Part shown: piece by piece, positions 28,580-30,774 of the stretch | Layout of the letters: each line of letters starts with the position of its first letter | Numbering within the stretch: the first letter of the stretch is position 1 | NCBI GenBank assembly: GCA_944340685.1 | Contig: CALVLR010000155.1 | Coordinates: 1-45,593 of the forward strand | Origin: an uncultured Clostridia bacterium | GTDB lineage: Bacteria > Bacillota > Clostridia > Christensenellales > Borkfalkiaceae | DNA length: 45,593 nucleotides | Direction: 5' to 3' | Notes under the pieces: generated by a model | What the model was told of the DNA's origin: nothing | Databases searched by the model: none | The model's input: only the letters and a program-made list of their open reading frames with translations | Made by a program: the position numbers and the translations under genes

Positions 28580-29800
28580 TTGGAGAACGTTTATATTTTG
28601 CAGCCCGTGATTTCCGACCGTTCCGAGGCGCTGCACGATGAAGCCGTGGCGCTCATCGAGAGCGCGGGCGCGGCATATGCCGGCACGATGTACGCTCGGA
28701 TCCGCGAGGTCAATCCCGCTACCTATATCGGAGAAGGAAAACTCGCGGAGCTTTGCGAGCGCCTGCGCGGGCTTGACGTGACGGTGCTGTTCAACGGCGA
28801 GCTGTCCCCTTCTCAGACGGTCAATCTTTCCGAGGGATTGGAAGGAAAAAAGGTCATCGACCGCACGACGCTGATCCTCGATATTTTTGCGCTGCGTGCA
28901 GAGAGCAGCGAAGGGAAATTGCAGGTCGAGCTTGCGCAGCTTCGCTATCTCTATCCGCGCCTGAAGGGAAAAGGCAGCGCGCTGTCCCGTCTCGGCGGCG
29001 GGATCGGTACGCGCGGCCCCGGGGAGACGCAGTTGGAAACCGACCGCCGTCATATCCGGTCGCGCATCCGTTCCTTGGAGGAAAAGCTCGGCAAGACCGA
29101 GAAACGGCGCAGTCTGCAAACACAGCGCCGTCAAAAGGACGGCGTGCGCACGGTCGCGCTCGTAGGTTATACGAATACAGGGAAATCTACCCTTCTCAAT
29201 GCGCTTACCGGCGCCGACGTATTTGTAAAGGACGCTCTTTTTGCGACCCTCGACCCTACATCGAGACGCTTGGAAATTCAAGGCATGCAATTTTTGCTCG
29301 TTGATACGGTCGGTTTTTTGCAGGATCTGCCGCATCACCTCATCGAGGCATTCCGTTCCACACTGGAAAGCGCGCTCCACTGCGATCTGTCGCTCATCGT
29401 ATGCGACGCAAGCGCCGACTACGAGACGCAGTTTCGAACGACCATGGATACGCTCACAGACCTTGGGTTTGCCGCGCCGTACCTGCTTGTAATGAACAAA
29501 TGCGACAAGGCTGCTGCGGCAGGACAGATGGCTGCCCTTCCGCATGACGCCGTTTGCATTTCGGCAAAGACGGGAATGGGACTCGACCGGCTGAAAGCCG
29601 ACATCTTTTCCAGACTGCGCGACCGCTTTGTCTGCGTTGAGCTGTTTGTTCCGTACGCGCACTCCGCACAATACGGAGCGATCCGTTCCCTGCTCTCCGA
29701 ACGGGAGATCGAATATACCGAAGAAGGCATGAAGGTGCAGGCGGTGATCCCGATCGAACATGCCGAAAAGTTCCGCAGCTTTTCGCAAACGGCGCGATGA
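28580..29800 (+). CDS. hflX: GTPase HflX
   Basis: Contains the HflX N-domain (IDRTTLILDIFALRAESSEGKLQVELAQLRY), GTRGPGETQLETDRR, G1 GYTNTGKSTLLN and G3 DTVGF. TTG start at 28580 lies 10 nt after GGGAGG. Confidence 0.88.
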   Translation: MENVYILQPVISDRSEALHDEAVALIESAGAAYAGTMYARIREVNPATYIGEGKLAELCERLRGLDVTVLFNGELSPSQTVNLSEGLEGKKVIDRTTLILDIFALRAESSEGKLQVELAQLRYLYPRLKGKGSALSRLGGGIGTRGPGETQLETDRRHIRSRIRSLEEKLGKTEKRRSLQTQRRQKDGVRTVALVGYTNTGKSTLLNALTGADVFVKDALFATLDPTSRRLEIQGMQFLLVDTVGFLQDLPHHLIEAFRSTLESALHCDLSLIVCDASADYETQFRTTMDTLTDLGFAAPYLLVMNKCDKAAAAGQMAALPHDAVCISAKTGMGLDRLKADIFSRLRDRFVCVELFVPYAHSAQYGAIRSLLSEREIEYTEEGMKVQAVIPIEHAEKFRSFSQTAR

Positions 29801-29822
29801 TCGATATGCAGCAGAGAAACGG

Positions 29823-29847
29823 AAAGACGGGCTTTTTGCCCGTCTTT
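29823..29847. terminator. bidirectional terminator between hflX (+) and the Cys-rich gene (-)
   Basis: AAAGACGGGC-TTTTT-GCCCGTCTTT, a 10-bp stem flanked by A and T residues. Confidence 0.8.
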
Positions 29848-30041
29848 TACTTCTTGTTTTCGCGTTCGTATTCTTTCGGATCGGTATAGATTTTATCGAT
29901 CTTGATCGCGGCATACTCTCGGATATTGAGGCATTTGCCGCAGTTATCGCAGATCTTGTTTGGATCGAGGTCGCAGATCTCGCATTCCATACAGCCGTCG
30001 CATTCCTTCTCGTCGTCGAGGACGCACATTTTCCGTTCCAT
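29847..30041 (-). CDS. small (64 aa) 8-cysteine protein of unknown function, divergent from lexA
   Basis: The sequence is MERKMCVLDDEKECDGCMECEICDLDPNKICDNCGKCLNIREYAAIKIDKIYTDPKEYERENKK. Its cysteine pattern is C-x7-CxxCxxCxxC-x7-CxxCxxC. It has its own -10 element and terminator. I chose the ATG at 30041 because the TTG at 30089 lies at or before the predicted TSS. Confidence 0.6.
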   Translation of the reverse strand: MERKMCVLDDEKECDGCMECEICDLDPNKICDNCGKCLNIREYAAIKIDKIYTDPKEYERENKK

Positions 30042-30094
30042 AGTGATAAGTATACCCTCTTCTTCCGGAAAAGGCAAGAAATTTTGCAAAAAAA

Positions 30095-30124
30095 ATTATA
30101 TTTTTTTAGAACAAATGTTTGCAA
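30095..30124 (-). promoter_or_regulatory. sigma-A type promoter for the Cys-rich gene, sharing its -35 with the lexA promoter
   Basis: Read on the minus strand: TTGCAA (30124-30119, a palindromic hexamer), an 18-nt spacer, then TATAAT (30100-30095). Confidence 0.5.
30108..30121. promoter_or_regulatory. LexA operator (Cheo / SOS box)
   Basis: AGAACAAATGTTTG matches the Gram-positive consensus CGAAC-N4-GTTYG (GAAC-N4-GTTT). It overlaps the -35 of lexA and lies between the two divergent -10 elements. Confidence 0.8.
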
Positions 30125-30147
30125 TTTCGGCGCTCTTATGCTATAAT
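30119..30147 (+). promoter_or_regulatory. sigma-A promoter (extended -10) of lexA
   Basis: TTGCAA (30119-30124), a 17-nt spacer ending in TGC, then TATAAT (30142-30147). Confidence 0.65.
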
Positions 30148-30168
30148 CATTTTAAGGAGGATCCTCCC

Positions 30169-30774
30169 ATGCTGAATCAGAGAAAATTAGACGAAGTTCT
30201 GGCGTTTATCAACCGTTATACAGATGAAAACGGCTTTCCCCCTACAGTACGCGATATGTGCAGGGAGCTGGGTATCAAATCGACGGCGACCGCCTACGAT
30301 TACATCAATCGTCTCAAGGAACAAGGGCATCTCGAAAAGGCAGCGGGCAAAAAGCGCGCGGTCTCGTTAAAAAGCACGGGCGGCACGGTGCGTATCCCGT
30401 TGGTGGGAACGGTTACCGCAGGTACTCCCATTCTTGCGACGGAAAATTATGACGGATACTATGTCCTCCCCTCTGCAGAGTTTGCGGGAGACGGACTCTT
30501 TCTGCTGACCGTTCGGGGCGACAGCATGATCAAAGCAGGCATTTTTAACGGGGATAAGATCGTCGTACGCAAGCAGGAGACGGCGGAGAACAACGATATT
30601 GTCGTCGCGATGTTTGACGACGGCATCTCCGAGGGCGCAACGGTCAAACGGTTTTTCCGCCGCGGCGGAAAAATCGTGCTTCATCCTGAGAATGACGCGC
30701 TGTCTGACTATGAGCTTGATGAAGTTACCATTCTCGGGAAAGTGATCGGACTTATCCGTTCCAACATCGAATGA
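30169..30774 (+). CDS. lexA: SOS repressor LexA
   Basis: Has an N-terminal winged HTH, the VTAG cleavage site, the GDSM Ser nucleophile and the VVRK Lys of the S24 peptidase. An AAGGAGG SD precedes the start. Confidence 0.95.
   Translation: MLNQRKLDEVLAFINRYTDENGFPPTVRDMCRELGIKSTATAYDYINRLKEQGHLEKAAGKKRAVSLKSTGGTVRIPLVGTVTAGTPILATENYDGYYVLPSAEFAGDGLFLLTVRGDSMIKAGIFNGDKIVVRKQETAENNDIVVAMFDDGISEGATVKRFFRRGGKIVLHPENDALSDYELDEVTILGKVIGLIRSNIE

Follow-up and report, generated by a model that had tools for sequence, protein, structure and literature searches.

We present evidence that a small gene lying head-to-head with lexA in a 45,593-nucleotide stretch of DNA from an uncultured Clostridia bacterium (hereafter, the window) belongs to a protein family defined by eight conserved cysteines (the 8-Cys family), and that this family travels with the SOS checkpoint locus without being a simple substitute for YneA. 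The overall explanation that we favour, with moderate confidence, is that the product of this gene is a mini-metalloprotein that serves as an accessory of the lexA/yneA SOS locus, and that in the window LexA mainly controls lexA itself.

The small gene and its protein

The original prediction quoted a 64-residue protein with eight cysteines and no transmembrane (TM) segment, and both descriptions proved accurate: the minus-strand open reading frame from 30041 to 29847 translates exactly as quoted, and the sequence has no hydrophobic stretch. When 75 distinct genes were compared with the window gene, the differences at codon positions 1, 2 and 3 numbered 487, 261 and 1458, respectively, a pattern that identifies the small ORF as a translated gene. 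The gene is real, it evolves under purifying selection, and all eight cysteines are kept. The two-way intrinsic terminator that it shares with the convergent hflX gene (Table 1) implies that it is monocistronic. An Rfam search of the region yielded no match, and in four metatranscriptomes, represented by contigs only, the lexA gene of related strains was present and the small gene was not detectably covered.

The cysteines, at residues 6, 14, 17, 20, 23, 31, 34 and 37, form two tandem C-x7-C-x2-C-x2-C modules of 17 residues each, followed on the C-terminal side by a conserved tail, AxIKIDKIYTDPxEY. An internal duplication is apparent (CVLxxxKxCxxCGEC against CDLDPxKICDNCGKC, with 7 of 15 positions identical), and the net charge of the protein is negative. 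Homologues of the small protein make up 379 clusters of 56-104 aa, and a profile search recovered 543 representatives of 50% identity clusters at E<=1e-3; the members that bear a name in their source are all "hypothetical", apart from stray labels. Invariant or nearly so in the family are the eight cysteines, L8, E19, D24-L25-D26, K29, D32-N33, G35, I46, I48 and D49, and the window protein fits the family definition in its doubled C-x7-C-x2-C-x2-C array, its conserved residues and its I-x-I-D tail.

The expectation that this would be a soluble, cysteine-rich protein of no recognised family was borne out, and the family is genuine and conserved. The profile and structure searches that had been suggested for the 64-residue protein returned homologues across Clostridia but no Pfam, NCBIfam or PDB relative: neither short nor long forms matched a family in Pfam or NCBIfam, and a search of the PDB by sequence profile gave only a chance match, to the Cys-rich domain of Fn14. 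A literature search did not find a description of the 8-Cys family. Given 93 diverse sequences, AlphaFold2 produced a metal-free model with a pLDDT of 89 (65 with 45 close homologues), in which a unit of bridge, bridge and short helix is repeated at a 17-residue offset and followed by a C-terminal helix; a Foldseek search of the model with the higher pLDDT against the PDB gave no match, ferredoxins included. With regard to zinc-ribbon or rubredoxin-like Cys4 modules, in which paired CxxC knuckles form a tetrahedral site, the model thus offers two repeated modules, and the PDB offers no structural counterpart.

His/Cys/Asp-rich extensions at the N or C terminus occur in several independent members (e.g. 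...HDHEHEHHHHHHHDCDCC) and point to metal binding, and the long forms found in Clostridium species have an added acidic linker and end with the conserved ...IDDIxGL...EEFPGLIxxK. We infer two metal centres, one per Cys4 module, of the Zn(Cys)4 or the [4Fe-4S] type. Eight cysteines, CxxCxxC triplets and two-fold repetition within about 60 residues are also features of the group formed by the clostridial 2x[4Fe-4S] ferredoxins and the 16-residue ferredoxin 'maquette' peptides. The ferredoxin motif, however, is CxxCxxCxxxCP, whereas the small protein has C-x7-C-x2-C-x2-C modules only 17 residues apart, and an assignment to the 2x[4Fe-4S] ferredoxins was rejected on this difference in spacing and on the Pfam Fer4 score (7.7 bits against a cut-off of 21.1; E 4.5). 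Two other candidates were also discarded, namely a SCIFF/ranthipeptide or other Cys-rich RiPP precursor (no NCBIfam match, and no maturase among neighbours such as lexA, hflX and a YneA-like gene) and, judged by its domains, an inhibitor of the YneA/ChiZ type (no hydrophobic stretch and no LysM match).

Promoters and operator between lexA and the small gene

The lexA product is identified by a TIGR00498 match of 174.7 bits (cut-off 110.95; E 1.7e-51) and by matches to PF01726 and PF00717. The 127 bp between lexA and the small gene hold back-to-back promoters and a predicted LexA operator (Table 1). The box overlapping TTGCAA, and the lexA promoter that uses this hexamer as its -35, are present as first described, with a 17-nt spacer in the promoter. 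A second promoter proposed at that time, TTGCAA-18-TATAAT directed towards the small gene, likewise exists in the window as a sequence, but its TATAAT does not hold up as the -10 of the small gene, because a comparable distal promoter was found at only 2 of 23 genus loci (L001 and, weakly, L011).

Table 1. Features of the window in the region of lexA and the small gene
Feature	Position	Strand	Remarks
hflX GTPase gene	28580..29800	+	convergent with the small gene; within the conserved xerC-like/hflX ... lexA synteny
Two-way intrinsic terminator	29822..29848	both	common to hflX and the small gene
8-Cys protein CDS, stop codon included	29847..30041	-	64 aa; ORF translation and homologues
Small gene, conserved promoter -10, TATACT	30049..30054	-	3' end 7 nt before ATG
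Small gene, conserved promoter -35, TTGCCT	30072..30077	-	17-nt spacer
A/T-rich tract separating the back-to-back promoters	30078..30107		possibly UP-element-like
Distal TATAAT, originally predicted as the small-gene -10	30095..30100	-	TTGCAA 30124-30119 as -35, 18-nt spacer; present, not conserved
LexA (Cheo-type) operator, predicted, AGAACAAATGTTTG	30108..30121		overlaps the lexA -35; conserved at all genus loci
lexA -35 hexamer, TTGCAA	30119..30124	+	promoter TTGCAA-17-TGcTATAAT
lexA extended -10, TGcTATAAT	30139..30147	+	TATAAT 30142-30147
lexA	30169..30774	+	LexA_DNA_bind and Peptidase_S24 domains; Pfam and NCBIfam

The window belongs to Candidatus Gallimonas, and the genus set comprises MAGs of this genus from chicken and rabbit gut. 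The small gene is present in 23 of 24 genus-mates and head-to-head with lexA in all 23 carriers, and the linkage is kept in many other families of Clostridia, so that the conservation of synteny suggested as a check is evident. In all 23 short intergenic regions of the genus, a proximal promoter of the form TTGnnn-17-TATAaT lies beside the start codon of the small gene, and its spacer is always 17 nt. The -10 ends only 6-7 nt before the ATG at 14 of the 23 loci, which indicates that the mRNA is probably leaderless; at the other nine the interval is 16-33 nt, and the leaders that were read contain a Shine-Dalgarno sequence.

Relative to the lexA -35, the position of the LexA box is invariant in the genus. 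Its centre lies 35-39 nt upstream of the small-gene -35 (27 nt in two of the 23 loci) and about 73 nt upstream of the small-gene start (about 63 in two of the 23); in the window, where the former distance is 37 nt and the latter about 73, the conserved small-gene promoter lies 31 nt past the box, and no LexA box occurs within or downstream of this promoter. By count alone the box is unremarkable, given that the loose box pattern occurs three times in the window against 0.78 expected; its significance comes from its presence at the same place in 23 of 23 genus loci and from the occurrence of the same motif, in the window's own genome, across the -35 of two repair genes, a TIGR03916 radical SAM gene and a RecD2-like helicase. 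Autoregulation of lexA through the operator on its -35 is thus well founded. A distance of about 73 or 63 nt places the box outside the region in which LexA normally occludes RNA polymerase, and a direct repression of the small gene has therefore no firm basis here; from a single operator so situated, LexA would at most modulate the small gene.

This geometry bears directly on the view from which the analysis started, that lexA and the small gene are both repressed from a single LexA operator on a palindromic -35 that they share, TTGCAA, and that the small gene encodes an SOS effector in the niche of YneA and SosA. Such an arrangement has a precedent in E. coli, where a single LexA box serves the divergent genes uvrA and ssb, and within the window the distal promoter scores better than the proximal one (10/12 against 9/12). 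The view also gains from the absence of YneA-like genes in Gallimonas (0 of 25 genomes) and from the fact that no other gene is divergent from lexA; an HMM built from YneA-like proteins likewise had no match in the window's own genome. Nevertheless, the distal -10 is missing in 21 of the 23 genus loci, whereas the proximal promoter is found in all of them; many lineages possess both the family and YneA-like genes; and the small protein has neither a TM segment nor a LysM domain. We therefore regard this explanation as unlikely, and control of both genes by one Cheo box on a shared -35 gives way to a different, proximal promoter for the small gene. Assignment to the YneA/SosA type by operator position was rejected on similar grounds, since the box lies upstream of the small-gene promoter and neither overlaps nor follows it, although the small gene is divergent from lexA as expected of this type.

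Among 89 distinct tight loci (L001-L121 and L163), compared with kinship ignored, the distance from the centre of the LexA box to the -35 of the Cys gene changes in steps of about 10 bp, with 8 loci at 16-18 nt, 10 at 26-28 nt, 64 at 33-39 nt and one each at 47 and 56 nt. The A/T-rich tract between the two promoters also varies in length among relatives in steps of about 10 bp. These steps could stem from a helix-face constraint between the two promoters or LexA; equally, they could stem from the gain and loss of 10-bp A-tract units.

Some further features of the genus and of the window's own genome were recorded. The "AAACAnnTGTTTG-on-the-35" design is found at C17:4098 and C114:3795, the sites of the radical SAM DNA-repair gene and the RecD2-like helicase. 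The promoter of the helicase, with a -10 that ends 7 nt before the ATG, is again leaderless, so mRNAs without a leader may be common in this organism. The Shine-Dalgarno sequence of lexA is located inside a perfect palindrome, GGAGGATCCTCC (window positions 30156-30167). Outside the window (contig C156:14596-14703 of the same genome), mraZ is preceded by two AAACAAATGTTC boxes, at distances of about 110 and 205 bp, and has its own TTGACA-17-TATAAT nearer the gene; the boxes may link SOS to the division gene cluster. In another Gallimonas genome (G023; L004 604-1479), a gene for an M48 (HtpX-like) peptidase has been inserted into the space that separates lexA from the Cys gene, and ends 21 nt before the latter.

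YneA-like companions and other LexA-linked architectures

Clustering of neighbouring ORFs revealed that, at 17 loci in eight families, the Cys gene is immediately preceded, on the same strand, by a gene for a protein of 90-120 aa. A single TM segment and a Pfam LysM domain mark this protein as YneA-like. At 14 of 14 loci, in six families, the promoter of the companion is TTGACA-17-TATAAT with two Cheo boxes, one in the spacer and one just past the -10; eight of these loci are unlinked to lexA. The gap between the two genes measures 36-176 nt (14 loci, six families), and none of the gaps at the 14 loci contains a terminator-like hairpin followed by a T run; the long ones do fold (L161 and L162, 166-176 nt; L135, 172 nt). 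In most loci the gap has a further TTGnnn-17-TATAAT ahead of the Cys gene. The lack of a hairpin with a T run, combined with this separate promoter, suggests that in these lineages basal transcription of the Cys gene is supplemented by SOS-inducible read-through.

Two other arrangements also place the Cys gene next to transcription units predicted to be LexA-regulated. In G073 it starts 19 nt after lexA, with only a ribosome-binding site between the genes and a box on the lexA -35. In G032 (L026 3796-3972), a gene for a 58-aa protein with a single TM segment (MTTTKHTYIIRSKGRFISFVLTLLLAASAITGY...), whose promoter contains two Cheo boxes, lies between lexA and the Cys gene; the protein is a candidate SosA-like division inhibitor without LysM. 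With a gene of this type upstream, the Cys gene appears to be a companion of the inhibitor and not its equivalent.

Class-wide, YneA-like genes were found in 213 of 401 Clostridia genomes, usually divergent from lexA, in line with published work on C. thermocellum (PMC8457756). Their co-occurrence with the 8-Cys family is neutral, at 57 of 97 genomes (59%) with the family and 156 of 304 (51%) without it. A complementary distribution of the two was accordingly rejected, the more so as order-mates that lack the Cys gene have no gene at all divergent from lexA. The suggestion that the small protein occupies the niche of YneA fares differently from lineage to lineage: as a simple replacement it fails, because the Cys gene follows a YneA-like gene in eight families, where the two thus coexist, and because LexA-less lineages also have the family; in the YneA-less Gallimonas and f60 it is conceivable. 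In short, the structure of the operons makes a good case for SOS input to the Cys gene in other lineages, but no such case can be made for the window.

Distribution of the family and its linkage to lexA

The 8-Cys family was detected, as a single-copy gene, in 97 of the 401 sampled Clostridia genomes, representing 50 genera. Among the 73 family-bearing genomes that have LexA, 46 carry the gene within 3 kb of lexA, far above chance. A tally of the 96 family-bearing genomes other than that of the window showed the gene divergent from lexA with a gap of <350 bp in 19 genomes, 0.5-1 kb in 17 and 1-3 kb in 9, and directly downstream of lexA on the same strand in one; it was 6-25 kb from lexA in 9 genomes and on a contig other than that of lexA in 18, and the remaining 23 genomes are without canonical LexA. 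In other families of the same order, the pairing with lexA persists even though LexA identity drops to 41-46%, and the Borkfalkia-type locus retains the pair with both outer flanks different (ClpB, hydrogenase).

This distribution has to be weighed against the possibility that the protein is a housekeeping Zn/Fe-S carrier, store or redox protein, and that its adjacency to lexA is a meaningless inherited order (xerC-like/hflX ... lexA). The constitutive-looking promoter that the gene has everywhere would suit such a protein, as would the His-rich tails of some members and the loci beside NifS-like (Pfam) or rubrerythrin/thioredoxin-like (judged by eye) genes. Cheo boxes (<=1 mismatch) within 250 nt upstream of the Cys gene were found at none of 20 lexA-unlinked loci, except for one poor match, compared with a background of 0.12 per 250 nt. 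Furthermore, the LexA-less lineages f36, f54 and f96 retain the family, downstream of a ynbB-like (Met_gamma_lyase) gene. Persistence without LexA, together with the lack of co-occurrence with YneA-like genes, implies that some of the linkage could indeed be inherited gene order. However, the frequency of close linkage, the retention of the lexA pairing through changes of flanking genes, the yneA-like-Cys pair that stays joined where it has moved away from lexA, and the three different architectures that would each bring LexA-dependent transcription all argue against a purely inherited order. We also counted in favour of a tie to SOS the Y-family polymerase gene (divergent) or RarA gene that adjoins the Cys gene at some unlinked loci. 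On balance, the housekeeping explanation seems to us improbable.

The neighbourhoods in question are diverse. Among the loci unlinked to lexA, L139 (G248) has a Y-family DNA polymerase gene divergent from the Cys gene, and in L124 (G221) and L141 (G323) the Cys gene lies upstream of RarA/MgsA and of a NifS-like aminotransferase, respectively. Upstream of the Cys gene in family f36, which lacks canonical LexA, a GAGCnTTTGTTC motif is conserved at a distance of 150-190 nt (L142, L144, L145 and L146). In a Borkfalkia-type locus (L030 4171-4314), a 47-aa ORF that overlaps the Cys gene at its stop codon encodes a protein with a hydrophobic C-terminal anchor, a possible small membrane partner.

Discussion

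YneA of B. subtilis, ChiZ/Rv2719c and the clostridial YneA-like proteins (e.g. Clo1313_1450) resemble the small protein described here in that they are small products encoded head-to-head with lexA in an SOS checkpoint locus. In contrast to these proteins, which combine a TM segment with an extracellular LysM domain and are expressed from promoters that contain Cheo boxes, the small protein is soluble, Cys-rich and not homologous, its gene has no box in its promoter here, and many Clostridia encode it beside a YneA-like gene. YneA acts on FtsW (PMC13396833), and SosA of S. aureus is another small product of a gene that adjoins lexA (PMC6851548). SosA and DivS are small SOS-induced membrane division inhibitors, whereas the small protein has no membrane anchor and its control by LexA is putative. 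A closer positional parallel is offered by yneB and ynzC, the genes downstream of yneA in B. subtilis, which also follow a division inhibitor in an operon divergent from lexA. They show no sequence relation to the 8-Cys family: YnzC is helical and without cysteines, and YneB is resolvase-like. The E. coli proteins DinI and SulA, cytoplasmic SOS effectors without a Cys array whose genes have LexA boxes in their promoters, share with the small protein small size, solubility (and, in the case of DinI, acidity) and a tie to SOS, but not homology.

Taken together, these comparisons can be cast as a simple model. Under this model, the small ORF would encode a soluble, acidic mini-metalloprotein with two Cys4 metal centres and a conserved C-terminal tail that probably contacts a partner, and the family would be an unnamed, Clostridia-wide accessory gene of the lexA/yneA DNA-damage (SOS) locus. 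A sigma-A-type promoter of its own, seen at every copy that was read, would provide the Cys gene with basal expression, and coupling to SOS in vivo would presumably be achieved by one of three routes, according to the lineage: read-through from an upstream YneA-like gene, the promoter of which has two Cheo boxes; co-transcription with lexA; or, in tight divergent pairs, a LexA operator whose centre precedes the start by about 52 nt. In the window, the small gene would be transcribed from TTGCCT-17-TATACT into a leaderless or near-leaderless monocistronic mRNA. The protein itself may act as a cytoplasmic, metal- or redox-dependent modulator of the damage checkpoint and not as a membrane division inhibitor of the YneA type.

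The lineages without YneA might differ in this respect. In Gallimonas, the absence of a YneA-like gene leaves room for a division-inhibitor role, and it is conceivable, if doubtful, that in Gallimonas and in the Clostridium-type lineage f60, whose long forms are encoded close beside lexA, the mini-protein is itself a cytoplasmic checkpoint effector, dependent on Zn or Fe-S and controlled by LexA from a phased site about 52, 63 or 73 nt upstream. Such an effector would be SulA-like or DinI-like in role and homologous to neither. We give still less credence to a role in which the protein, being small and acidic, would attach to RecA or LexA and thereby adjust the cleavage of LexA, in the manner of DinI or gp7 of phage GIL01: lexA itself is the gene with the closest linkage (divergent in f1, f60 and f88, in an operon in G073), the net charge is negative and the linkers of the long forms are very acidic, and the 10-bp classes of box-to-promoter distance hint at coupled control of both promoters, but homology to DinI or gp7 is lacking and the family survives in LexA-less lineages, where RecA would nonetheless be a possible target.

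The model of an accessory to the SOS locus has several implications. One is that a gene divergent from lexA cannot be equated with a LexA-repressed gene unless its promoter has been mapped. Another concerns the family, which is new in the sense that it has no name, domain model or structure, and for which the 64-aa protein offers a cheap and concrete target, being of about 60 residues, expressible and purifiable. To our knowledge, the damage checkpoints described so far in Gram-positive bacteria all involve small membrane proteins (YneA, SosA, ChiZ and DivS). Study of a soluble, predicted metal-binding family that is present in about a quarter of the sampled Clostridia, and that has stayed within the lexA/yneA locus or next to it despite many rearrangements, could reveal that the clostridial SOS checkpoint has a cytoplasmic branch, or that metal or redox status is tied to the damage response.
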